64,000 nucleotides of DNA from positions 111,686 through 175,685 of the forward strand of contig CAVQNN010000011.1 in NCBI GenBank assembly GCA_963714175.1, in the 5' to 3' direction. Shown here one piece after another: positions 28,883 through 47,194 of the stretch (within the stretch, counting starts at the first letter, position 1; each line of letters starts with the position of its first letter). Source of the DNA: an uncultured Actinomycetes bacterium. Lineage in GTDB: Bacteria; Actinomycetota; Thermoleophilia; RBG-16-64-13. Under the pieces are notes generated by a model. That model was not told the origin of the DNA. It saw nothing but the letters and a program-made list of their open reading frames with translations, and ran no database searches. A program made the translations under genes and the position numbers.

Positions 28883-29284
28883 TCAGGTATCCGCCGCGTC
28901 GTCCGCTGCGTCGTCCGGGGCGCTATCCGGGGTTTCATCCGGCGCAGGGTCGACCCAACCGGCGAAGTGCCGCTGGAAGACCGCCTCCAGAGTCTCGGCC
29001 ACCTCGGTCGCTACAGCCCGGTAGCGTCCCAGGAGATCTCTGGCCTCCGGGGTCAGGTGCGATCCTCCACCCAGGCTGCCGCCGACGCTCCGGTCGAGTA
29101 GGGCGAAACCCAGACGCTCCTCAGCCGCGTGCAGGATGCGCCACGCCTTGTTGTACGACATACCCAGTTCCTGAGCAGCCTTGCGCAACGACCCCGACTG
29201 CTCCACGCCCTCCAGGAGCCGCGCAGGGCCGTCTCCGAAAGCTCTGCCCCGGTATTCAAGCCATAGTTTGTAGCTCAGTCGCAC
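28883..29284 (-). CDS. ModE-N-terminal-type winged-helix regulator (molybdate/tungstate-responsive-like HTH, no TOBE domain)
   Basis: 133 aa. LLEGVEQSGSLRKAAQELGMSYNKAWRILHAAEERLGFALLDRSVGGSLGGGSHLT resembles the ModE N-domain, including the GGxxGGG(S) loop. Confidence 0.75.
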   Translation of the reverse strand: MRLSYKLWLEYRGRAFGDGPARLLEGVEQSGSLRKAAQELGMSYNKAWRILHAAEERLGFALLDRSVGGSLGGGSHLTPEARDLLGRYRAVATEVAETLEAVFQRHFAGWVDPAPDETPDSAPDDAADDAADT

Positions 29285-29293
29285 TGTGGTGTC

Positions 29294-29974
29294 CTAACTC
29301 TGCGTCGTGCCGCTGTCCGGCGGGGCAGCTTGCGGCGGCACTGCGCCGGTCACTGCATCGGCCGGAGCCGGACTCGGCTGGGCACCCACTGTCGGCGCGC
29401 CGGCAGGCGTTGGCATGTACGGTGGCGGACTGATGGGCGGGCTAGGTGGCGGACTCATGGCGGCTGCAGCCGCAGTCGAGGCCGGGGACAGGTAGGTCTC
29501 GGTGCCGCAGTAAGGGCAGCGGACCAAGCCTTTCCCGGCCAGCTCCACCTGACCGCCGCAGTTGGGGCAGCTACCCTCCTTGATCTGAGCGGCCTCAGCC
29601 GATACCAATTCGCCCTTCTCCCAGTTCACATACCCTCTGAAGAGGTCCTTGCCGATGAGGTCATAGACGTAGGCCTTGACCTGCTCGCGGGTCAGGTTGC
29701 ATTCGATGGCCAGATCGGCGACCCCCACCCGTCCCCGGGTCATCACCGCGTTGAGGATGGTCCGCTCCTTGTCCGCCTCGCTCTCGGCCTTGATCTCTCC
29801 CTTCGAGGCCAACAACAGGTAGAGCCCCACGGCCACGAACGGCAGCGAGAACAACACCAGACCCAGGACATATCCTGCCTTGCTCCCAGTCGCCTCGGTC
29901 AGGCCGACCACCAGCCAGGCGGCGACTCCCAGACCGACGATGATCAGCACGATCCCGAGAATCCTGGTCCGCAT
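29294..29974 (-). CDS. membrane protein with cytoplasmic wHTH-like segment and zinc ribbon; Pro-rich C-terminus
   Basis: 226 aa with two N-terminal TM helices and CPNCGG…CPYCG. Confidence 0.75.
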   Translation of the reverse strand: MRTRILGIVLIIVGLGVAAWLVVGLTEATGSKAGYVLGLVLFSLPFVAVGLYLLLASKGEIKAESEADKERTILNAVMTRGRVGVADLAIECNLTREQVKAYVYDLIGKDLFRGYVNWEKGELVSAEAAQIKEGSCPNCGGQVELAGKGLVRCPYCGTETYLSPASTAAAAAMSPPPSPPISPPPYMPTPAGAPTVGAQPSPAPADAVTGAVPPQAAPPDSGTTQS

Positions 29975-30056
29975 CGTTTCCTCCTGGTTGCTCTGCTATC
30001 GCTACAGCCGACGCCCGGCCCGCGGGGCCGGGCGCCGGTATGGATTCGCTCTCCAC

Positions 30057-31908
30057 CTATCCTGCGCGGAAGCCGCCTCCGCCGCCTCCGCCGGAGAAGC
30101 CTCCCCCGAAACCGCCGCCGCCACCGGAAAATCCGCCGCCACCGAAGGCACCGCGCTTGCCGCCGCCGCTGGACGACGGGACCGAGGTCAGGGCGCTGGA
30201 CATGTTGCTCAGGCTGCTGAACAGACCGTCGGATATGCTCTCGAGGCTGAAGCCTCCTCCAGACGATCCACCGGCATTGGTGAGACCGCCGCCCAGACCT
30301 CCTCCAAGACCGCCCGTGGCGACCGGTCCGGAGCCTCCCGGGAAGGGAATGATCACCGGCGGATGATACCAATCGGGAGAAGAAACGGTCAGGCTTTCGA
30401 AACGCCTCACCCAATCCTTCTCCACGCCGAAAGCGATGGCATAGGGCAGGTACTTCTCGAAGCTCTCCTTCGCCGTCTCCATCTCCTGGAACCGGGTGAG
30501 ATCCTTGAGGTAGTTGCGGAACGCCTCGCACTTGCGCTGCTCCTGGGCGCCTTTGGGCGTCCGCTGCGGCATGCGAGGCGCAAACACCCATACGATGATC
30601 ACAGACACGATCGAACCGAACATGAACCAACCCCACCCGGAGATGTCGGCCATGGCCATGATGACCGTCAGAAGCCCGAGGATGACCGCGACGACGAAAC
30701 CATAGCCTACCCAGCGCTCCCGGGCCTTCTTGGGATTGCTGAAGAACAGCTTGCGACTCGTCACGTCTTCGTAGACCTGATTGACGATCGGCTCGACGTG
30801 CGTGTAGAAGTGGTTCTTCAGTTCGGCGGTCGTGACCTGGTCGGGGTGCTTCGCGTCGAAGAGGGACTCCGCGACCTTCTTCTCGAAGCCCTGCAGATCG
30901 TCGAGCGCCTTCCGGCGCGTGAAGATGGTCACCGCTTTGCGTGCTGCTCCCTCTTTCGCCGTGTCGGTGATCTCGATGTAGCCACGCCGGGCCAGGTCGA
31001 CGATGGTGGCGATCACCTCTTTGGTGTCGACCTTCTCGTCGATGAGCGCTCCGGCCAGACCCGGAGACAGATCCGCGGGAGGCTCGGCTCGCGTACTTGG
31101 CGTAGACCGCCGCCGGCTCATCGCGCCCACGCCGGCGCCAGATCAAGAGCATGCCGAGGAAGAAGAGAATGGGGAGAAGGAACCCTATCTTGGGTATCAG
31201 GAATTCCGCCAGACGCCGCGCCGTCCACGTGAACTTGACCACGCCCTTGGGGAACCCGGTCACGATCCAGAAGTTGGTGTACGGAGGGATGTCTGAGGCC
31301 TGATACACCATGGTGGAGGCGGCCGGCGAGGTGACGTTCGTCTCCACGCCATATCCGGCCTGGACGGCCTGAGTCATGTCTCTCCGAGGGAACCGATCCC
31401 GGCAGCTTGACGGTGGCCTTGACCGCCCCGATGGGCACCGGGGTGTCGGCGTCGAACACGTACCACCTCAGCTCGTCGCCCTCGTCGCAGAACATGACCA
31501 CGTTCTTGGCCCGATAGTGGATGGTCCAGGTCGACGAGGTGTCGGTGAGGTCGAAGTTCATCTGGATGTAGAGAGTGTCGCCCTCTTTGAAGGTGCTGTA
31601 CGTCCCCGGCGAATCACCCTTGGGTAAGGGGGTACCGTTGGCGTCGCGGACTTCGATGTCGGTGATGCCGCCCGTGTTTTCGGTCGGTATGTCGCGGGCG
31701 ACGAAGTGATAGTTGCCCTCGAAGGTGAAGGTGACCATCTCGTCGACGATCACGTCGCCGTTCTCCTGGACGTCGAGTAGCACGTCCATGTTGTCGATGC
31801 GCCAATCCTTGGCCGCGGCCGAGGCCGTCGGACCGGCGACGCAGCGCCAACAGGGCGCAGGCAAGCGGCCAGGAGCGCGAAGCCCCAGAGGTGACGCCGA
31901 TGGCTCAT
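30057..31908 (-). CDS. DUF2207-family membrane protein with Gly-rich C-terminal tail (at least 3 apparent frameshifts)
   Basis: ATG at 31908 gives a signal-like MSHRRHLWGFALLAAC. The extracellular DUF2207 N-domain lies in frame 31118..32884, the TM plus cytoplasmic part in 29944..31377 and 30057..31130 (LSPGLAGALIDEKVD…DLARRGYIEI), and the tail is (GGGF)n. Confidence 0.7.
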
Positions 31909-33042
31909 TGCTTGTCGCCCTCGGGAGCCTCATCGGCCTTCTCGGCTTGCTGCAGCGCGCTCGAGGCTCCGCCGGAGCCGCGGCCGGAGCCGTCAGGTTC
32001 TGACCGCAGTTGGGGCAGAATTTCGAGCCCGCCGGCAGGGTCGCCTTGCACTTCGGGCACGTCACCGTCGCGGCCAGATTCGCGCCGCAGTTCGGGCAGA
32101 ACTTGCTGCCGTAGGGGATGTCCTGGCTGCAGTTGGGGCAGCGCACCTTGGGCTGCGCTCCACCGGCCATGGCCTGCTGCAGCATGCCGGGAATCATCAT
32201 GCCCAGGCCGGCGCCGGCGCCCAGGCCCAGACCGGCCGTGGCCGCCGAGCCGATGTCGGTGCCGCCCCCTCCTCCGCTGCCGCCGCCTCCCTTGGCCAGG
32301 TCGCCGATGGCCTGCGCGGCCTTGTACTGGAAGTAGCGGTCCATGCCGCCGACGGCTTCCATGCCGGAACGCTCGTCGATGCGTTTCTGCACGTCCTCGG
32401 GCGGCGAGATGGCGTTGACCAGAAAGTCGACGATCGCCAGGCCGTACTGGGCGAAGTCGTCCCTGATCCGGGCCTTGAGACCGGCGCCCAACTCGTCGAA
32501 GTAGCGCGGCAGATCGAGCACGGAGTCGAGGCTCTCACCCAGGATGTCCGCGAGCCGCCCGATGATCACGCCCCGCAGGAAGTCCTCGATCTGGGCGTTG
32601 GTGTAGATGCCGCGCGTGCCCACGAGCTTGACCACGAACAGCTTGGGATCGGTGATCTGGAAGGTGTAGATGCCGTTGGAGCGCAGTCGGATCATCTTGA
32701 ACTCGGAGTCGCGGAACAAGATGGGCTCGACGGTGCCCCACTTCAGGTCGGTGAAGGTCCGCTTGCTGACGTAGAAGACCTCGCACCGGAAGGGTGTGTC
32801 GCCGTAGAGAGGCGTGGTGAAGATCGACGGTGAGCAGGGGTATGTTCTGCGTGGCCAGGGTGTGCCGGCCCGCGTCGAAGACATCGTAGGCCTTGCCGTC
32901 TCTGAAGAAGACAGCCCATTGGCTCTCGCGCACGATCAACTGGGAACCGAGCTTGAACTCGCCCGAGCCCTGCTCGGGGATGCGATGGGCCATCTCGTTC
33001 GCCTTGTTCGTCAACGTACTCGATGAGATCCATGAGGGCCAT
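31905..33042 (-). CDS. SPFH/band-7 domain protein of the COG4260 type with C-terminal double zinc ribbon (apparent frameshifts)
   Basis: The start MALMDLIEYVDEQ (ORF 32743..33042) shifts to LIVRESQWAVFFRDGKAYDVF (ORF 32535..33014) and then to the 588-aa frame (…RCPNCSQDIPYGSKFCPNCGANL…CPKCKATLPAGSKFCPNCGQNL). The stop TGA overlaps the DUF2207 ATG. Confidence 0.7.
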
Positions 33043-33137
33043 CGATTACCTCCCAGCTCCGGTGATGAGGTTTTCCCGCTCGGAGAAGCGGGCGTCCAAT
33101 GCTTCGATCCGATCGTCCAGGATACCGATGTCGGCGC

Positions 33138-33563
33138 TCAGCGACGGGCTGCCGACGGCGAGCGCCGCGGCGAGGTCGCGTATGCCCTATCGCTTCTGTC
33201 TCGAGCCCCTGGTCGAACGCGCTGCAGCTCGTCGATCTTCTGCGCGCCCACCTTGGTGGTGTCGAACAGGCCGGCATAGCCGTAGTCGGCGAACTGTATG
33301 CGGTCCCGCACCTTGCGCACTTTGCGCATGATGACGTCGACTTCTCCCAATCCCTCCAGGTTGCCGCTCTTCATGAGGTCGAGCTTCAGTTCGTCCAGCG
33401 TGCCCAGGCAAGAATCGACGTACTCGGCCACGTACACCCGCTCGATCTTGTCGGCCTCCCGCCCCAGTTCCTTCTCCTTGTAGCCCTTGTAGCCGGGGAT
33501 CTTCTCCATCATCCGCTCGAACCAGTTCTTGCTCTCCTCTACCCTGTCATCGATCCCAGCCAT
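33138..33563 (-). CDS. hypothetical charged/coiled cytoplasmic protein
   Basis: 141-aa ORF MAGIDDRVEESKNWFERMMEKIPGYKGYKEKELGREADKIERVYVAEY… It is co-oriented and lies immediately upstream of the SPFH gene. The C-terminus may be frameshifted. Confidence 0.55.
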   Translation of the reverse strand: MAGIDDRVEESKNWFERMMEKIPGYKGYKEKELGREADKIERVYVAEYVDSCLGTLDELKLDLMKSGNLEGLGEVDVIMRKVRKVRDRIQFADYGYAGLFDTTKVGAQKIDELQRVRPGARDRSDRAYATSPRRSPSAARR

Positions 33564-33618
33564 GATCTCCCCTTTGCTCTATGTGACCGATCGAGCCCGC
33601 GCGTCGGGACTTCGGACT

Positions 33619-34306
33619 CTACGCTACCAGACCATCGAACTCGCGCAGCAGCAACCTCCAGTTGGACTCGTGTATGTAGCGAGGATCCCAGACGGCGGGA
33701 ATGAACAGCAGCTCCTCGCCGACCGCCTCGAGCTCGTAGTCGACAGACCGCAGGTCTTTGGCCTCGTGCGATTCGACCGCCAGATAGACGAAGTGTGCCA
33801 GTATCCGGGCATCCCGTCTGCCCACCACCACGGGAGAGAAGGTGCCGAAGCCGGGTCCGGCTGCGTCGCCACTCGATTCGACTCCAAGCCGGCCCCCACG
33901 CAGCATCGGTCTCTGCGCCGCGGCAGGGCCGCTACGAGCCCCGGGGAGAGCTCCAGCATCGGCTGCGCCTCGCGTCAGACTCACCCCCAACCGCTGCACC
34001 ACCGGACGCATCAGCGAGAAGGCGGGGACGTAGAGATAGGCAGGCTCCGGGCGCAGCGACCTTGCGGATGCGCTCCCAGGCGGAGTCGGAGGCCGCGGTC
34101 ACGGAGACAGCCAGACGCCACACCGCCAGATAGTGTACCCCTCCGGCCACGGCCAGCTCAGTGGTCGCTGAAGCGGTCAGGGGGGAGAACGCGGTGAATC
34201 CGTCTTCGCTCGGCTCATGTACCGACCCGCAGTTCGGGCAGATGAAGAGGGCGGCATCGTCACCGCCCTCAAGGGCAAGCCCACAGTTGTCGCAGAGCAG
34301 CGGCAC
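33619..34306 (-). CDS. hypothetical protein with N-terminal zinc ribbon (apparent frameshift)
   Basis: ORF 33932..34306 (MPLLCDNCGLALEGGDDAALFICPNCGSVHEPSEDG…) continues into ORF 33619..34011 in another frame. Confidence 0.55.
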
Positions 34307-34310
34307 CAGA

Positions 34311-35347
34311 TCAGCCGGAGAAAGGTTCGTGGTATTCCACCTCCCCCACCGCGCGGAATCGCCAGATCGACAGTATGCCTATCACAGACACTATCACGGC
34401 TGCGGCCACCATTGAAACGCGGCCCGTCTCCCGGGTGACGGCGAGCAACACGAGAAGGGCGACCACGATGGCCATGGCGACCACCTGCAGCGCCAGAAGC
34501 TGGATGCGCCGCGAGTTGTCGGCCGGAGCGACGGCCGAGTTCACGCTTCCGTCGCGGCCGTTCACCACTACGCGACAGATACGATTCCCGCGATCTGTAG
34601 CGAACCACCCACAGGGGATAGTAGAGGAGCGCGAGTGGATTCCCGGAAGGCGAACAGATGACTGTCGGGAGACGACGCCCCCGAGAGCGGCTGCAAGCGC
34701 CGCCGCCCGCCCTGTCGCCGTTACTTCGCTCGCCGGACCCTTCGGCCTCCAGGACGGTCGCCGCCGGGTCCAGTTCGCCGGCCAGCAGGGGCAACAGAAG
34801 CTCCCGGCCGGTGAAGCGAGGGCGTGTCGCGCCCAGGGCCTCCAGGTCGGTGGCCGCCTGGTAGAAGCGGCGTTCCTGAAGGCGCGGCTCCTTGATCCCC
34901 TTCTTGACCAGCCTGAGTTCCAACCGGCCGCCGCCTTCTTCCTCGTCGAACATCGAGCCAGCCGACCGAGATGCTCGGACGGACAACCTCGGTCTCGGTC
35001 CGCAGGATGTGGCCGAACTCCCACCCCGCCAGCAGCGCCTTGTGCTCCCAGATGGGAGCGAAGATCAGACGGGCATCGACGAAACGCGCGTCACGCGCCC
35101 GCTTGGCGATGCCAGGGTAGTCGCGAAGCCAGGCGGCCCCAGCAGCAGCGGCTTTGAGCCGGTTCACACGCGGGGGAAAGTACCAGCGGGAGAAACCTCC
35201 GTGCTCCTTCACCGCCACGCGCACCCCACAGTGGCGGCAGACGAGGATGCGCCGACCTTCTCGAACGCTCAAAGGACCGGCGCACTGCGAACACTGGACC
35301 GAGTGAAGCACCTCCTCTTCCGGAGCGGACACAGCCTGGGCCGTCAT
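34311..35347 (-). CDS. hypothetical protein with zinc ribbon and C-terminal TM helix (apparent frameshifts)
   Basis: Pieces from three frames: MTAQAVSAPEEEVLHSVQCSQCAGPLSV…CRHCG (34721..35527), MFDEEEGGGRLELRLVKKGIKEPRLQERRFYQAATDLEAL (34177..34986), and the tail …VAAAVIVSVIGILSIWRF…* (34311..35024). Confidence 0.5.
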
Positions 35348-35527
35348 CCTCCAGAGCCGGAAGCGACCGGGGCCGCGTCGTCTCGGGCCCCCAGCTCCCG
35401 CTCTCGGGTCAGAGTCGACCCGCAGAACGCACAGACAGCCGCGTCGGCATACCCGGGCATGACCACCGGGGCTCCGCACTGCGGGCAACTGATCTCGGTC
35501 GTGTTGTTGGTCGTCGTGTAGCATCAT
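35344..35527 (-). CDS. small zinc-ribbon protein (about 60 aa)
   Basis: Frame …ISCPQCGAPVVMPGYADAAVCAFCGSTL…* ends with TGA overlapping the ATG of the next gene (ATGA). The N-terminus is uncertain. Confidence 0.35.
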
Positions 35528-35644: not shown

Positions 35645-37100
35645 CTACGCGTAGCGCAAGACGCCGGCTACGCCGCCGAGCTCGTCCAACGCCGGGTATG
35701 TTCTCTCCGACCTCCACCTGTCCGTTCTGCGATGATCGCCAAGCCGGACGATCTCGCCCACGGCGTCGGCTATGGGCACGATGGCACCGCCGCATACCGG
35801 GCAACGCTCGGTCGCGACCAGGCCGACCCAGCCGCAGTCCACACAGCGCCAGCCCGGCACCCGATAGTTGCGATCGACGAGCAGGGTCTGCACCTGGTGG
35901 CGGCCCACCGCGCTGAGCACGTCGTCAAAGCCGGAGACCCCCCGGCCGCCGTGACCCAGGCCCTCTTTGATGCGCGCGGCCAGCGCGACCATCTCCTCGT
36001 GCCGGGCCTCTTCCACGGCCTGCCGGGCGCTGACCACCATCTGAGCCGTGGTGGCCGCTGCGTCAAGAGGTATCTCCGCCACTATCTTGGCCGCCACGCT
36101 GGCCGGCAGCGTGCGCCGGAAGCCGCTGGCGATATCGTGCTGGGCGCAGAGTGCCACCCGTCTCACGCCAGAAGTCTCGAGCAACTTGGCCAGTGAGGCC
36201 CCGACCTCCTTGAAGTGCAGATCGACCAGGCTGTCCTGACGAGCAGCCGCGTAGTACTCCTTGATGGACAGCTCGCCGCGTCTCTCGGTCGCTGCTCCGC
36301 AGCCACGGCCCGTCGAGATCGTCCTCGTGGGCCACTCCCCACTCGTCCACCAGGAACAGGGTCGATTCGTCCCGGCTCACGCGCGCCACCACGAAGGGCT
36401 CCAGAAGCGAGAGGGCGTGCGCCACCGGACGGATATAGGGCGAGGGTTCGATCACGACACGGTTGACCAGTCGGAAGGGCAGTTCGATCCGCTCGTAGAA
36501 GCCGCCGCCCCGTCGGCGAACACGGCCAGACCCTGGGTGGCCGGAGTCACGTCGTACATGAGCACGTCGAGCACATGGTCCAGATCGGTCTGTAGAAGGC
36601 GTTTGTTCTCCTTGGATACTCCGCTCTCCTTGGTGATGCGGTTGAACTCGCTGTGGAGGAATGCGGGAGCAAACAGCCGCCAATCGTCGAGGCGGCTGGT
36701 GGACAGAGTGACGGTCAGGAATGCGGCACCTGACGCCTTGGCTGCAGCAAGAGCTTTCAACTTGTCCTTGACCCCGGCCGCGCTGTCGATCATGAATCGC
36801 CGCCTTCCACCTGGCCCTTCGACTCCGCCGGCTCACCTGCCTCGGCGGTTCCTTGCTCATCCTGCTCGGCCCGGGGGTACCTGCTCGGGTGGCGGCACGG
36901 ATTCTCGATCGTGAAGGGCCTGCTCTCTGCGCCACCTGCTCCTCTCGCTCACGGAACTTGTCCACCAGGGCAGACTTGCCCTTGTCGTGGGCTGGCTCGG
37001 CCATGTTGACGTTGCCTGTGTCGGAAAGCGCGGACCTCATCTTCTGCACGGGGGTGAGGGGGCGCTCTCTGCCAGAGCGTTCGACCTTCTTGTCGGCCAT
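35645..37100 (-). CDS. bacterial eRF1/Pelota-like (baeRF-family) protein with C-terminal zinc ribbon (apparent frameshifts)
   Basis: The C-terminal ORF 35645..36184 has an eRF1-domain-3-like segment (GRGVSGFDDVLSAVGRHQVQTLLVDRNY) followed by CVDCG…CPVCGG. The middle and N-terminal pieces lie in ORFs 36452..36793 and 36063..37100. Confidence 0.55.
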
Positions 37101-37266
37101 CTTGTCCCCTTTCGGTTCTTAGGAGGTAAGGCCTGTGGTCGCCGAACGTGTAGTTGACTTACTACCCAGCGCCGGGCGGACCTAACACGCCCGGTTTGTG
37201 TCTTTCACACCGTTGGGCATATTGTGGAGACTGCCGGGGCCTCACTGTCTGGAGGAGCTTTGCTCC

Positions 37267-39853
37267 ATGGACGACTTCGAGAAGCAGGGCGCGTTCTACC
37301 TTGGCCGCGAGTACGAGCTATCAACGAAGCAGAGCGGCGGACCTCTTCTCTATGACTCGAAAGACCTGGTCACCCACGGCGTCTGTGTGGGCATGACAGG
37401 CAGCGGCAAGACCGGGCTCTGCGTGGGTCTGCTCGAGGAAGCCGCCCTGGACGGGATACCCTCCATCGTCATCGATCCCAAGGGCGACCTGAGCAACCTG
37501 ATGCTCACCTTCCCCGGCCTCACGGCCGAGGACTTCCTCCCCTGGGTGAGCCAGGAGGAGGCCGGCAAACAGGGCCTGACTCCCGAGGCTTTCGCCCAGC
37601 AGCAGGCCGAGATGTGGAAGAAGGGGCTGGCCGACTGGGGGCAGGATCCGGCTCGTATCCAGCGCCTGAAGGATGCCGCGGACTTCGCCATCTACACGCC
37701 CGGCTCCAACGCCGGTCTCCCGGTGAGCATCCTCAAGTCCTTCGCTGCGCCCGCCCCTGCCGTACGCGACGACTCCGAGGCGCTCCGTGACCGCATCAAC
37801 ACGGCCGCCACGAGCATCCTGGGCTTGGTGGGCGTGACGGCCGATCCCATCCAGAGCCGGGAGCACATCCTTCTCTCCAGCCTGTTCGACTCCGCTTGGT
37901 CGAAAGGCCAGGATCTCGACCTCGCCGGCCTCATCAGGCAGATCCAAGCGCCGCCGTTCCAGCAGGTCGGCGTGCTCAGTCTGGAGTCCTTCTACCCGGC
38001 CAAGGACCGAGCCGCACTGGCCATGCTGCTCAACAACCTGCTGGCCGCGCCCACCTTCCAGTCCTGGTTGGAAGGAGAGCCGCTCGACATCGGGGAGATG
38101 CTGTTCACGAGAGACAAGAAGCCCCGGGTGACGATCTTCTCCATCGCCCACCTCTCCGACGCGGAACGCATGTTCTTCGTCTCGCTTCTGCTCAACGAGG
38201 TGCTGGGCTGGGTCCGGGCTCAGCCGGGAACGGGAAGCCTGCGCGCCATCATCTACATGGACGAGATCTTCGGCTTCTTCCCTCCGGTGGCCGAGCCTCC
38301 ATCCAAGCGGCCGCTCCTGACCCTGCTCAAGCAGGCTCGAGCGTTCGGAGTGGGCATCCTCCTGGCCACGCAGAACCCCGTCGACTTGGACTACAAAGGC
38401 CTCGCCAACGCGGGCACCTGGTTCATCGGCCGTCTGCAGACCGAGCGCGACAAGGACCGCCTCCTCGAGGGCCTGGAGGGAGTGGCCGCCGGCACCGAGG
38501 CCAAGTTCGACCGGCAGAAGATGGAGGAGACCCTGGCCGGCCTGGGCAAGCGGGTCTTCCTCCTCTACAACGTGCACGAGGACGCCCCCGTGACCTTCCA
38601 GACCCGCTGGACCATGTCGTACCTGGCCGGCCCACTCACGCGGAGTCAGATCAAGACCCTGATGGATCCACGCCGGCCGCCGGCCGCCGCACGGCAACCT
38701 GCACCGGCCGCGGCTGGAACAGCAGGCGGGGCCGCGGCGTTCGGAGCGGCGCCAGCCGTCGTCACAGGCGTGGCCATCGGGGGAGCGAACGCCGCGATAA
38801 CTGGTGTCGCGACAGCGGGCATCGACATGACGAGCGCCGGAGCACCGGGAGCGCCGGGCGGGAGCATGAACTCCACGTCGACCGCGTTTGCCGCGACCAC
38901 GCTGCCGCCGGAAGTCCCCGCGGAGATACCTCAGTACTACCTGCCGCTCCGTGGCGACGACCCCCGCCGGACCCAGCCTTGTCTACCGGGCAGGGGTGTT
39001 GGCCGCCGCGACGGTCAACTTCGTCAGCACCGGGACTGGGGCCAGCTCGTCCAAGCGGATCCGCCGCATCGCCGAGGCGCCCGAGAGCGCCCTGGCTCTC
39101 AACTGGGAGAAGGCCACCGACCTCGAAGCGACCCTGGAGGATCTCGACCGTCAACCCTATCCCGGGGCGACCTTCGCCCCCATGCCGGCGGCCATGACCA
39201 AGGTCGCCTCGTATCGGTCTTGGGGGTCGGACTTCTCGGATTGGGCGTTCCGTACGCAGACGGCCGAAGTGTTCAAGAGCGCAGGGTTCAAGCTGAGCTC
39301 CGACCCGGGGGAGACCGAGGACGACTTCCGGCGCCGGCTCGAGCGAAGCGCGAAGGCCGAGCGCGATGAGCAGGAAGAGAAGCTCACGAAGCAGTTCGCC
39401 ACCAAGAAGGCGGCTCTCGAGCAGAGGGTGCTCAAGGCGGAGCATGCCAAGGAACGCGAGGCCGAGCAATCCAAGGGTCGCAAGATGCAGACCGCCATCT
39501 CCTTCGGGGCCACGCTTCTGAGCATGTTCACGGGCAAGAAGAAGCTCAGCAGCACCACTCTCGGCAAGGCCACGACCGCCATGCGCGACGTGGGTCGCAG
39601 CATCGACGAGGGAGGCGACGTCAAACGAGCCGAGGAGTCTCTCGAGGTCCTCAGACAGAAGCTGGCCGATCTCGAGACCGAGCAGCAGGAAGCTATCGAC
39701 GCTCTGGAGTCGCAGATCGACCCAGCGGCCGAAACGCTCGAAACGGTGCTGATGCGGCCTCGCAAGAGCGACATCACGGTGGATTCCCTGGGGCTCGTAT
39801 GGATGCCCTACTGGCAGGACGACACAGGCGCGTTGATGGGCGCGTGGGGATGA
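37267..39853 (+). CDS. HerA/FtsK-like P-loop ATPase of the YjgR (DUF853) type with long coiled-coil C-terminal extension (about 860 aa, one apparent frameshift)
   Basis: ATG at 37267 with a [54 protein letters not shown] parallels the YjgR Walker A/KGDL region. [27 protein letters not shown] is also conserved. The frame switches near 38950 into ORF 38888..39853. Confidence 0.75.
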
Positions 39854-39901: not shown

Positions 39902-40354
39902 ATGCTAAAGGACTTCAAGGCGTTCATCGACAGAGGCAACCTTCTGCAGTTGGCCGTGGCCTTCATCTTGGGCGTCGCGTTCGCCGCGGTTGTGACCTCG
40001 TTGGTGAACGACATCATCATGCCGGCTGTGGGTCTCGGGCTCGGAGGGGTCGACTTCACCAACCTGTTCGCGGTGATCAAGGATGCCCCGACGGGCCCCG
40101 CCGATTTTGCGAACCTCCAGGCGGCCAAGGATGCCGGCGCCGTCACCATCAACTACGGTGTGTTCATCAATGCCATCATAGTGTTCATCATCGTGGCGCT
40201 TGTGCTGTTCTTCATCATGAAGGCCTACATGAAGACGCAGAAGCCCGCCGAGGCGACCACTCGCGACTGCCCGTTCTGCGCCACCGCCGTTCCGATCGCG
40301 GCCACCCGTTGCCCGCATTGCACCTCGGAACTGCCGGCCGTGGTCAAGACCTGA
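39902..40354 (+). CDS. mscL: large-conductance mechanosensitive channel MscL with C-terminal zinc-ribbon extension
   Basis: MLKDFKAFIDRGNLLQLAVAFILGVAFAAVVTSLVNDIIMP is the canonical MscL TM1. The C-terminus is DCPFCAT…CPHCTS. Confidence 0.9.
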   Translation: MLKDFKAFIDRGNLLQLAVAFILGVAFAAVVTSLVNDIIMPAVGLGLGGVDFTNLFAVIKDAPTGPADFANLQAAKDAGAVTINYGVFINAIIVFIIVALVLFFIMKAYMKTQKPAEATTRDCPFCATAVPIAATRCPHCTSELPAVVKT

Positions 40355-44937: not shown

Positions 44938-46668
44938 CTATTGGTCACCGAAGCAGTAGAAGTAGCCGTCGCGACAGCCCAGGAAGATGTTGCCCTTCCA
45001 GACGGCAGGCGTTGATTCCAAGGCGCTTCCGCTCGGCACCTTGAGTTCCCAGACCACGGGCGGGTCGATCCGGGTGTTGCTCACGTCCCAGGCGTGCAGC
45101 ACCCCGTAGGTGTCGCCCACGATCAGAGTCCCGTCGACGACTACGCAACTCGCCCACGCGTGCTCGGTGAGGGTCTTCTGCCAGACTATCTCGCCGGTGG
45201 CCCGGTCGAGGCCCAGCAGGGCGCCGCCGTGTGTGGGGACGTAGACCATGTCTTTGTAGATGCAGGGCGTCGCCCAGACTCCGGAGTTTCCGCCCGACTG
45301 CTTGGTGACCTCCTGCGACCAGACCAGAGGATTCTCGCCCTCGCCACTCTTGCGCGGGTCTATCTTCATGATCTGCCCCACTTCCGCTTGGCGCGCTTTG
45401 GAAGCGCTCGACCGACCGTAGTCGTTGTCGGAATGCTGGCACACGTACAGATAGCCCTCTTCGTCGGCGACTATGGTCGCGTCGGTGTCACCGCCGGTCC
45501 AGTAGTGGAACACCTTCGGGTACGCGTCCTCGCCGGTGGGCGGCGCCTCGTCCGCGGGCAGTTCTTCCAGGGTCGCGCTGACGTCGAGTCCCTGGATGAG
45601 GCCGCCGGAATTGGAGAAGTAGACGGTGTCACCGACAAGGCAGGGAGAGTTCTCGACGCCCACGTCCTTGCTGCCGTTCTTGTCGACCAACGTCTGGGTC
45701 CAGGCGGGGTAGTCCAGCACGATCTCGGGCGCCACGGTCACCTTGCCGCCGGCGTCGTAGCCACGGTTGAGCTTGAGGATGTAGAAGTGGCCGTTCTCGC
45801 CGCCTTCGAACGCGTAGTCGTTACGGATGACCACGCTCGAGTCCCAGTCGTCGTTCCAGATCTGGCGCGGCAACTCGTCGGCATCGAGATTGAACAGCTC
45901 TGTGGGCTCGTCCCCATCGATGGCGATGATGCGCCACTTGTTGTCCCGGCAGCCCATGTAGATGAGGGGGTACCCGTCGGGATCCGCCACGACCGAGCCC
46001 TTGAAGATGTCGCCGCCCTTGAAGGGGGGCAGTAGTTCCTCGCCGGTGGCGGCGTCGAGGAAGTGGATCTTGTAGTCGTAGGCCCCGAACACCACCCAGG
46101 TCTTGCCGTCTTTCTCGAACACGCAGGGCTGGCCGGTCCAGCCGGTGCCGGTCCAGTTCGAGGTATTCGCCCCATCGGTCGAGCTACCCGACATCGGACC
46201 GAACTTCCACAGGATCTGGGGGTTGGTCGGGACGGGGCCCTCGCCGTAGTAGGTGCGGGACGCGTTCCCACGGAACATGATGAGTCCCTCGAACTCGGTC
46301 TGGATGGGGCCGTAGAAACTGCCGGCTTTGCGCGTGTCGCCCGGTTCGTCAGGGTCTCCCTCGCCCGGGGCCACCGTGGTGTTGGGGCTGGAAGGGTTGA
46401 TCAGTTCGGAGATGTCGAGGCCGCCGGTGGTGGTCGTGGTCTCTGAACCTTCCGTGCTCGTCGTCTGCCCGGAACTCTCGGAAGTGGTTGTGGTGGTGGT
46501 CGTGGTCCCGTCGGCGCCAGTCGGGTCGTCGCCACAGCCGCGCACGGCTATCAGCACGACCAGCAGGACGATCGCGACGCAGGCCAGCAGAACGAGCCAC
46601 CGCAGAAGGAGGCGACGGCGCCGTTCACGTCGGCGACGCTCGCTGGTCGCCCTATCGGTCCTTCTCAT
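44938..46668 (-). CDS. secreted/membrane-anchored PQQ-like beta-propeller repeat protein
   Basis: Intact ORF. The likely start is MRRTDRATSERRRRERRRRLLLRWLVLLACVAIVLLVVLIAV (ATG near 46668), followed by a Thr-rich linker and WxG-rich propeller repeats. Confidence 0.8.
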   Translation of the reverse strand: MRRTDRATSERRRRERRRRLLLRWLVLLACVAIVLLVVLIAVRGCGDDPTGADGTTTTTTTTSESSGQTTSTEGSETTTTTGGLDISELINPSSPNTTVAPGEGDPDEPGDTRKAGSFYGPIQTEFEGLIMFRGNASRTYYGEGPVPTNPQILWKFGPMSGSSTDGANTSNWTGTGWTGQPCVFEKDGKTWVVFGAYDYKIHFLDAATGEELLPPFKGGDIFKGSVVADPDGYPLIYMGCRDNKWRIIAIDGDEPTELFNLDADELPRQIWNDDWDSSVVIRNDYAFEGGENGHFYILKLNRGYDAGGKVTVAPEIVLDYPAWTQTLVDKNGSKDVGVENSPCLVGDTVYFSNSGGLIQGLDVSATLEELPADEAPPTGEDAYPKVFHYWTGGDTDATIVADEEGYLYVCQHSDNDYGRSSASKARQAEVGQIMKIDPRKSGEGENPLVWSQEVTKQSGGNSGVWATPCIYKDMVYVPTHGGALLGLDRATGEIVWQKTLTEHAWASCVVVDGTLIVGDTYGVLHAWDVSNTRIDPPVVWELKVPSGSALESTPAVWKGNIFLGCRDGYFYCFGDQ

Positions 46669-46681
46669 CTCCACTCGGCTG

Positions 46682-47194
46682 CTATGTCTCCAGTTCGAGC
46701 ATCTCGCGACCGAAGACCCCCGTCGCGTTGTCGGTGAAGGCCGCCCGATACGGGACCACTCGGTAGACACCGACGTCCCTCATCAGATCAGCGTGAATAG
46801 GTTGGGACAGCAGATCTCGCGCGAAGGGGAAGCGCGCTAGATAGAGCGCGAGCGCCGCTGCTTTGGAGCCGCCGCTGAGGAGACTGGCGTCGCCCCATAG
46901 CTGCACTCCCTGGATCTTCTCCCACTCCGCATACACCTCGGTCACGGTCACCGCCACCGGAGTCCCCTCCTCGATATGCGAACCGTGGACGCTATCCGTC
47001 TTGCTGAGAAAGGTCAGACGAAGAGTCCCGTCCACGGCGTAGAAGACGGTGGCAGCGTGAGGCGTGTCGCCGACCGGGCCGGTCGTCGCGATCGTCATGG
47101 TGTGGTGCGCACGCAGGTAGTCTGCGACCCGATGATGTAGGCCGTCGCTCTCAGACAATCCTGGGACCCCCTTGCCAGCGTCGGAAAAGGTCAT
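46682..47194 (-). CDS. pyridoxamine 5'-phosphate oxidase-like FMN-binding split-barrel protein
   Basis: HRVADYLRAHHTMTIATTGPVGDTPHAATVFYAVDGTLRLTFLSKTDSVHG pattern. The start is uncertain. Confidence 0.65.
   Translation of the reverse strand: MTFSDAGKGVPGLSESDGLHHRVADYLRAHHTMTIATTGPVGDTPHAATVFYAVDGTLRLTFLSKTDSVHGSHIEEGTPVAVTVTEVYAEWEKIQGVQLWGDASLLSGGSKAAALALYLARFPFARDLLSQPIHADLMRDVGVYRVVPYRAAFTDNATGVFGREMLELET

Follow-up and report, generated by a model that had tools for sequence, protein, structure and literature searches.

A diverged relative of the hibernation factor Balon and its small upstream gene in a clade of Actinomycetota

Here, we examine a baeRF gene, encoding a bacterial protein of the eRF1/Pelota (aeRF1) superfamily, on the minus strand of a 64,000-nucleotide stretch of DNA (the window; G+C about 65%) from an uncultured Actinomycetes bacterium (Actinomycetota; Thermoleophilia; GenBank assembly GCA_963714175.1, contig CAVQNN010000011.1), together with the small open reading frame (ORF) directly upstream of it and the large P-loop ATPase that faces away from both on the plus strand. 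The baeRF gene is genuine and encodes a diverged relative of Balon, a factor of ribosome hibernation in bacteria. Sequence comparison points to the small ORF as its constant partner, the two forming what reads as a translationally coupled two-gene operon. By analogy with Balon and Dom34, we consider the baeRF protein to be, with a probability of roughly 0.58, a stress-induced, non-catalytic factor of the ribosomal A site that would be expressed under SigF/SigB-type control and would work with the small-ORF protein.

With its reading frame corrected as described below, the baeRF product scores 47.7 bits against Pfam baeRF_family10 (PF18854; E=2.5e-12, residues 119-257), above the gathering score of 27.1, and all its close homologues carry the same domain. 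This is the comparison with the Pfam baeRF families that an earlier, sequence-only reading of this DNA had proposed, and the eRF1/Pelota fold on which that reading staked its release-factor-like assignment is recovered as well. A profile built from the clade finds Balon MSMEG_1130 (PDB 8v9j_z) over residues 85-380 (E=6e-7) and also the C-domain of aRF1 (3ir9), with whose zinc ribbon the two CxxC pairs of the clade align. Foldseek searches with the AlphaFold2 (AF2) model return Balon Msmeg1130, aRF1, P. urativorans Balon, Rv2629, eRF1 and Pelota as top PDB matches, the best among solved structures being Balon 8v9l_z (E=1.9e-10); this fold match comes mainly from the C-terminal half, because the model is good only there. 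Furthermore, the NCBIfam matches of the protein, although weak, are to all three Balon-type hibernation factor families (AOC03_06830, Rv2629 and MSMEG_1130).

The protein has the full three-domain layout of aeRF1 proteins, and its family-10 relatives align along the full length. The four cysteines of its zinc ribbon (C317, C320, C331 and C334) are invariant in the clade alignment, and the ribbon is present in 118 of 128 sequences, comprising 125 distant relatives and three members of the window's clade. A search of 1.84 billion cluster representatives with the baeRF clade gave 2,607 matches at E ≤0.001. The clade itself is narrow, with two full-length 50%-identity representatives above 500 bits and the next relatives at 160 bits or less, and the distant relatives that were sampled all belong to Pfam family 10 (36/36).

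The case for a non-catalytic factor lies in the middle-domain loop. Three alignments bear on it: one of the clade including the window protein (A1), one of 19 clade sequences (A2) and one of a 12-sequence, GGWSQ-type subset of family 10 (A4). Loop residues G173, E174, S176 and Y180 are invariant among 20 aligned clade sequences. When A2 is compared with A4 by hhalign (probability 100%, E=1.4e-60, 363 columns), the G-G-W-S-Q of the relatives pairs with G-E-L-S-I, and throughout the 19 A2 sequences and the window protein the loop reads G-E-(L/V)-S-(I/V), with an invariant Glu in place of the second Gly and Ile or Val at the Gln position. Many relatives carry a [KQ]GGWSQxR[YF]xR loop, the strict form GGx[SAGT]Q being found in 49 of 125. 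The degenerate GGQ-like loop that was to be looked for after frame correction is there, in a form without the Gln; because the GGWSQ of the relatives reads GE(L/V)S(I/V) here, the protein has no catalytic Gln. Moreover, neither NIKS nor GGQ was found in the clade alignment, leaving the classical aeRF1 motifs unmatched.

The lost Gln speaks against hydrolysis of peptidyl-tRNA and favours a non-catalytic role in the A site, of the kind played by Dom34 and Balon. The hydrolytic function suggested by the sequence-only reading is thereby weakened, the loop Gln of the relatives being Ile or Val in the clade and the nearest solved relatives being hibernation factors. We regard it as unlikely that the protein is instead a catalytically active release or rescue factor that hydrolyses peptidyl-tRNA on stalled ribosomes with chemistry supplied by other residues, such as Glu174. 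Such a factor would suit a family whose members often keep GGWSQ and which was singled out for a conserved, possibly catalytic Gln and flagged as potentially active (Burroughs and Aravind 2019, PMC6514570), and it would suit the strong conservation of the loop within the clade; it is countered by the exchange of that very Gln for Ile or Val and of the second Gly for Glu, and by the description of the Gln-less aeRF1-superfamily proteins Dom34 and Balon as non-catalytic (PMC6514570, PMC10901736).

The second line of evidence concerns the company that the gene keeps. A scan with the baeRF alignment, one genome per species, found 28 loci, all in metagenome-assembled genomes (MAGs) of Actinomycetota (labelled Thermoleophilia, Gaiellales and similar). 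An ORF of 75-117 amino acids lies directly upstream of baeRF in every related locus: tblastn detects it in 28 of the 29 loci compared, and L030, whose baeRF is 48% identical, has a diverged copy recognizable by eye. The stop of the small ORF and the start of baeRF share a 4-bp ATGA overlap in the window and in most loci, with a short gap in L030 and L035. The N-terminal 65 residues of its product (MADKKVERSGRERPLTPTQKM...HDKGKSALVDKFREREERWRREQ) are conserved and basic and are followed by a variable, acidic tail. Pairwise variability amounts to 0.155, 0.104 and 0.441 at the first, second and third codon positions, respectively; since third positions vary 3-4 times more than the other two, the ORF is protein-coding and under purifying selection.

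This small protein family has 397 database matches, none with a Pfam domain and the few names among them being stray automatic labels, and the window copy matches nothing in Pfam, NCBIfam or PADLOC. None of 80 loci in the wider family 10 has it, and it was found only in the window's clade. It is distinct from HPF/RaiA, the reported partner of other baeRF and Balon genes (PMC6514570, PMC10901736). We entertain, as a tentative and rather doubtful extension, that the small protein and the Gln-less zinc-ribbon baeRF silence ribosomes together as a two-protein module, not described before and controlled by a general-stress sigma factor, in which the small protein would bind the ribosome or the factor and so replace the RaiA/HPF or EF-Tu partnerships of Balon. 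The Foldseek matches of the baeRF model include PDB 6zme, which we take to be CCDC124/Lso2 with eRF1 on a hibernating eukaryotic 80S ribosome. CCDC124/Lso2 is a small, charged, largely helical protein that accompanies an eRF1-type protein on idle ribosomes, and it offers an analogy to the small ORF only.

The third line of evidence is regulatory. An intergenic alignment of 18 loci and the window reveals a conserved block, GTTTAGGTC-N-GGGTAGTAA, that precedes the small ORF by about 80-90 nt. Counted as G[TG]T[TG]-N14-19-GGGTA, the motif occurs at -78 to -107 in 22/29 loci, against a background of 0.06 matches per kb, and the motif-bearing loci include the divergent L030 and L035, whose spacer sequence differs. 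Most relatives have GTTT-N17-GGGTA; the window copy, with GTGT, falls outside the counting pattern. The mycobacterial SigF consensus is GTTT-N14-19-GGGTA, and the GTGT variant is listed among SigF-dependent promoters, for example that of M. smegmatis MSMEG_1131 (GTGT-N16-GGGTA), the gene adjoining the Balon gene MSMEG_1130 (PMC4694148). On the other side of the spacer, a block CATATTGTG that is kept as CACAATAT on the opposite strand in most loci may be the -10 element of the ATPase. Because the upstream elements differ, the two divergent units would have separate promoters of different type. A scan of 35.4-40 kb found no sigma-70 consensus promoter and a single terminator-like site, which lies inside the baeRF gene and is no more than expected by chance, and Rfam gave no match over 33-41 kb at E up to 0.1.

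These features are located as in Table 1, and the locus is best read as two independent transcription units lying back to back, the small ORF and baeRF on the minus strand and a run headed by the ATPase on the plus strand. In three-frame translation, a coherent minus-strand protein over 36793-35645 requires the splicing of three reading frames, and frameshift-aware alignment places indels near 36504 (-1), 36281 (+1), 35739 (+2) and 35696 (+1). The corrected protein is 97% identical to an intact metagenomic orthologue of 381 amino acids (P0001), a length common to about 100 database homologues. The small ORF has an indel near 36938 and further indels in its tail. For the ATPase, dropping one inserted nucleotide yields a product that aligns without gaps, at 97% identity, to an intact 861-residue orthologue (P0510), and its start codon matches the start in homologues.

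Table 1. Features of the baeRF locus, in window coordinates.
Feature	Position	Strand	Remarks
baeRF-1 (aeRF1-like) gene	36793..35645	-	381 amino acids after frame correction; start ATG 36793
Middle-domain loop R-E-T-G-E-L-S-I-K-E-Y-Y	36251..36290	-	counterpart of the aeRF1 GGQ loop and of the relatives' GGWSQ loop
Zinc ribbon CxxC-N10-CxxC	35792..35845	-	inserted in the C-terminal Pelota/eRF1_3-like domain of baeRF
Small ORF	37100..36790	-	about 100 amino acids, begins MADKKVERSGRERPLTP; separate conserved gene upstream of baeRF
SigF/SigB-type promoter-like motif, GTGT-N17-GGGTA	37163..37188	-	about 65-90 nt upstream of the small ORF
Divergent intergenic region	37101..37266	.	166 bp, between small ORF and ATPase
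Conserved block CATATTGTG	37218..37226	+	about 43 nt upstream of the ATPase start; candidate -10 (TATTGT)
HerA/FtsK-superfamily P-loop ATPase	37267..39853	+	861 amino acids after dropping a 1-nt insertion near 38956; start ATG 37267

This layout retains the two main elements of the sequence-only reading, an aeRF1/Pelota-like gene on the minus strand, with the motif GRGVSGFDDVLSAVGRHQVQTLLV at about 35876-35947 and the four-Cys ribbon, and a divergent plus-strand P-loop ATPase of about 860 residues with a long coiled-coil tail, which we see as a long C-terminal helical hairpin. Several of its details have changed. The interval 35645-37100 had been taken for one product and proves to hold two genes; the ORF at 36063..37100, to which the N-terminal portion of the release-factor-like protein had been assigned, is a chimera running out of frame whose first 54 codons (from 37100 downward) belong to the small gene. 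Since the ATPase starts at ATG 37267, and not at GTG 37198 as had been assumed, the intergenic region measures 166 bp instead of 100 bp, and it separates the ATPase from the small ORF, not from baeRF. Frameshifts had been noted only near 36200-36450, and indels of baeRF, the ATPase and the small ORF fall outside that range too.

From these observations, we infer ribosome binding, hibernation, stress induction and a role for the small protein along the following lines. Under stress, the operon would be induced from its SigF/SigB-type general-stress promoter, and the baeRF protein would enter the ribosomal A site as a tRNA-shaped mimic. There, it would hold the ribosome inactive and protected, or mark it, without hydrolysing peptidyl-tRNA or freeing the nascent chain, and the small basic/acidic protein would assist as a clade-specific partner, perhaps on the ribosome. 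The zinc ribbon may mediate contact with a GTPase or the ribosomal stalk, because it is placed where Balon has its EF-Tu-binding hairpin.

Several points weigh against this proposal. The protein stays below the curated Balon cut-offs in all three NCBIfam families (53.6 versus 330 bits for NF052287, 41.2 versus 320 for NF052289 and 38.9 versus 480 for NF052288). The AF2 model is poor in the N-terminal and middle domains (pLDDT, the per-residue model confidence, below 50 at residues 1-39 and 96-190), so the structure is uninformative on the loops that face the decoding site and the peptidyl transferase centre. The N-domain is unalignable to that of Balon, with pLDDT below 50, and the first 120 residues of the clade alignment hold no invariant or near-invariant His; hence, no conserved His-Pro, the HP motif with which the N-domain of Balon contacts the decoding centre (PMC10901736), was found there. 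Additionally, the invariant loop residue Glu174 may have a catalytic or other role, the promoter assignment was scored against a mycobacterial consensus, and the adjacency of the ATPase, kept in 26 of 29 loci, means that a functional link within the clade would be compatible with the synteny.

Some of the same observations would fit a protein that acts elsewhere than in the A site by binding RNA or a different partner, for example in RNA quality control or in the manner of stress granules, and whose similarity to Balon reflects no more than shared ancestry. We judge this to be improbable, about as much so as the catalytic alternative. The low scores to the Balon families, the unalignable N-terminal domain and the novelty of the small partner protein would all be in keeping with it, against which the characterised full-length aeRF1-superfamily proteins among the structure matches and in the literature (aRF1/eRF1, Pelota/Dom34 and Balon) act in the A site, and the clade keeps an invariant Arg (AAAR, R185) in the helix after the loop. 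Conserved basic residues in the helix following the catalytic loop have been described as a mark of large-subunit rRNA contact (Burroughs and Aravind, PMC6514570).

The baeRF protein would work most like Balon while standing outside the curated Balon families, and it is a member of family 10 by score that lacks the Gln for which that family was noted. Among solved structures, Balon (P. urativorans AOC03_06830, M. smegmatis MSMEG_1130 and M. tuberculosis Rv2629) is its best match in both sequence and fold; it is likewise a three-domain, stress-associated protein without NIKS and GGQ, one that occupies the A site and is encoded in stress operons (PMC10901736). Balon differs in carrying an EF-Tu(GDP)-binding beta-hairpin where the window protein has its four-Cys ribbon, the aligned MSMEG_1130 segment being free of Cys, and zinc ribbon and beta-hairpin have been described as alternatives at one insertion site in the C-domain (PMC6514570). 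The two also differ in partner, which is RaiA/HPF or Hsp20 for Balon and the new small ORF here, and the window protein falls short of the Balon family cut-offs, with no HP motif found, as mentioned above.

Members of baeRF_family10 share the three-domain layout and the zinc ribbon, and the window protein passes their gathering score; they differ in the conserved Gln (GGWSQ) for which the family was noted and which is missing in the window's clade, and in the small upstream ORF, which is confined to that clade. In aRF1/eRF1 and Pelota/Dom34, the same fold is found, the C-domain zinc ribbon of aRF1 (3ir9) occupies the same place as that of the window protein, and Dom34 resembles it in having no catalytic Gln. 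These proteins are archaeal and eukaryotic, whereas the window protein is bacterial, lacks NIKS and GGQ and has no eRF3/Hbs1-type GTPase gene nearby.

If the proposed A-site role is correct, a non-catalytic A-site factor would have arisen in this clade, by a second route, from a bacterial eRF1 homologue with a zinc ribbon and GGxSQ, a route that retains the ancestral zinc ribbon instead of the EF-Tu hairpin of Balon and gains a private small partner. Comparison with the GGWSQ relatives would bear directly on the question raised in 2019 of whether any baeRF-1 protein is a real bacterial peptidyl-tRNA hydrolase, and on what sets such hydrolases apart from hibernation factors.

The divergent ATPase is a protein of another kind. 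Its Walker A motif, GMTGSGKTG (37390-37416), and Walker B motif, IIYMDE (YMDE near 38254-38265), are both invariant in homologues. The AF2 model comprises an ATPase domain (residues 1-434), a disordered Ala/Gly/Pro-rich linker (435-528) and, from about 38957, a C-terminal beta domain, modelled with confidence, that bears a helical hairpin of about 130 residues; in NCBIfam, this C-terminal domain draws only a sub-threshold CcmI coiled-coil match. Sequence and profile searches match HerA 8wiv (E=2.3e-7), HerA 7f6d, YjgR 11kk (E=3.5e-5) and DotL, and Foldseek matches HerA 7wrx_B (E=1.5e-5), VirB4 and TrwB. Pfam HerA_C (PF05872, DUF853) scores 26.5 bits against a gathering score of 22, over residues 20-79 and profile positions 6-65 of 502, and the NCBIfam HerA models reach 15.7 bits against a cut-off of 970 (NF040819) and 21.7 against 800 (NF042943). 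Because HerA_C covers the Walker A region only and the HerA models fall far below their cut-offs, the HerA/FtsK fold is correct and YjgR membership is not established; of the YjgR/HerA-like (DUF853) label given by the sequence-only reading, the first part is thus dropped and the fold kept.

The family to which the ATPase belongs is very large, with at least 8,000 significant matches in several phyla. The window protein is 57-60% identical over its full length to out-of-clade homologues, including some from Nitrospirota and Pyrinomonadaceae (Acidobacteriota), and family members of about 830 residues combine a HerA/FtsK-like domain, a disordered linker and a conserved C-domain of beta strands and a helical hairpin. 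HerA-NurA, Sir2-HerA, HerA-DUF4297, YjgR, VirB4 and TrwB share the Walker motifs and the fold; the window ATPase differs from the HerA systems in its unique conserved C-domain and in having no nuclease, Sir2 or DUF4297 partner. We found no characterised member of this widespread, strongly conserved family, which merits study in its own right.

With respect to the baeRF operon, the ATPase looks like a neighbour kept by shared ancestry, with no demonstrable functional tie. It lies divergently upstream of the operon in the 26 loci already mentioned, all within a single clade of Actinomycetota MAGs, and other neighbours are kept equally well over the same 29 loci (MscL in 25, Band7 in 25, PolX in 24 and RlmL in 24). 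Together they form a 17-kb block, with the ATPase at the head of a run of MscL, RlmL and PolX on one strand and the small ORF, baeRF, several zinc-ribbon proteins, Band7, DUF2207 and HTH_1 on the other; some loci add an opposite-strand HAD hydrolase. Where the block has been rearranged, the operon survives: in L021, L030 and L035, the ATPase is missing from its place beside the operon, the small ORF being next to MscL in L021 and to PolX in L030 and unrelated genes lying upstream in L035; in L001 and L033, rpiB is inserted between the ATPase and the operon.

Beyond the clade, the two genes part. No ATPase homologue occurs in any of 80 metagenomic loci of GGWSQ-type family 10 (552 kb, scanned with A4), and no baeRF lies within 10 kb of five out-of-clade ATPase homologues (L004, L006, L007, L116 and L117; 56-60% identical, two of them named Nitrospirota and Pyrinomonadaceae), whose loci have no common neighbour. 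Raw ORF clustering, judged by eye, shows RmuC-, thioredoxin reductase-, DUF488- and ABC ATPase-like genes as recurrent neighbours in the wider family 10, which probably reflect lineage synteny and carry no functional clue. The sequence-only reading had offered the juxtaposition as an undescribed system and held that it would fall if homologues of the two genes never co-occurred elsewhere. Taken literally, they do co-occur, the pair recurring across the clade, but this recurrence goes no further than inherited gene order, in a block equally conserved over 17 kb and with no counterpart in the wider family 10, so that the proposed system does not hold up.

Hence, we find it very improbable that the HerA-like ATPase and the baeRF operon make up a single conflict or quality-control module in this clade, with a motor coupled to a ribosome-directed effector. 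The conserved divergent adjacency, the use of HerA-type ATPases as motors in several defence systems and a weak PADLOC match to mad8 (39.8 bits) would be in line with such a module; the equal conservation of the whole block, the broken or split pairs beside intact operons (L021, L030, L035, L001 and L033), the mutual absence outside the clade (0/80 and 0/5) and the different promoter-like elements of the two sides all argue otherwise. Moreover, the ATPase is 57-60% identical across aligned out-of-clade homologues, unlike fast-evolving defence genes, and no Sir2, NurA (nuclease) or DUF4297 partner is found in the window or its relatives. In PADLOC-DB 2.0, neither baeRF nor the small ORF has a match, and the ATPase draws just generic mad8 and HerA models (39.8 bits or less), with no other PADLOC system genes beside it. 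A defence island was likewise rejected: mobile-element, restriction and toxin genes are all lacking around the pair, and the ATPase is too conserved across phyla. The pairing of a release-factor-like and a HerA-like gene thus goes back to an inherited arrangement, seen here in a noisy MAG assembly, and does not amount to a new conflict system; what remains is a modest but testable variant of the bacterial eRF1-like hibernation factors.

The noise itself is widespread. Relative to orthologues, there are at least 18 frame changes over 15.7 kb (28.9-44.6 kb), affecting nearly every gene with 1-4 each; outside the genes discussed so far, they number 1 in PolX, 3 in RlmL, 2 in g305, 2 in DUF2207 and 1 each in g189, g170 and Band7. 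The fragment gene calls deposited for the 929,563-bp contig in NCBI/ENA (P0195 of 700 residues, P0511 of 141 and P0514 of 173) reproduce the frameshifted residues exactly, and the indels therefore belong to the public assembly. Long-read-style contig names are common among the MAGs of the sister loci, and we treat the indels as sequencing errors of an indel-rich long-read MAG assembly. The notion that the frameshifts are real and the locus a decaying pseudogene cluster can be given next to no credence. The indels of baeRF (four or more), the ATPase (one) and the small ORF (two or more) and the fragmented deposited calls might seem to point to it, but indels recur about once per 0.9 kb throughout the 15.7-kb block, in nearly all its genes, PolX, RlmL and DUF2207 included, and the frame-corrected products have no in-frame stop and are 97% identical, without gaps, to intact orthologues, a combination that is the signature of error-prone long-read assembly.

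A striking number of the proteins encoded in this neighbourhood have zinc ribbons. The MscL homologue at 39902-40354 (+) has a C-terminal CPFC...CPHC zinc-ribbon extension. To our knowledge, such an extension is unusual for MscL. Downstream of baeRF, the minus-strand block at 28916-35527 is conserved across the whole clade and encodes three to four zinc-ribbon proteins (g253, g305 and g189), another zinc-ribbon protein, an HTH_1 regulator, a 170-residue protein with a weak LIMLP_15305-family match, an SPFH/Band_7 protein with a double zinc ribbon (about 31976-33014) and a DUF2207 membrane protein (about 30060-31831, minus strand); this block looks like a membrane-associated SPFH module. Farther along, at 44938-46770 (-), lies a gene for a 610-residue protein with a Thr/Ser-rich N-terminal region, which is apparently secreted or membrane-anchored and whose counterpart in L003 carries PQQ_2 and Beta-prop_ACSF4 domains.

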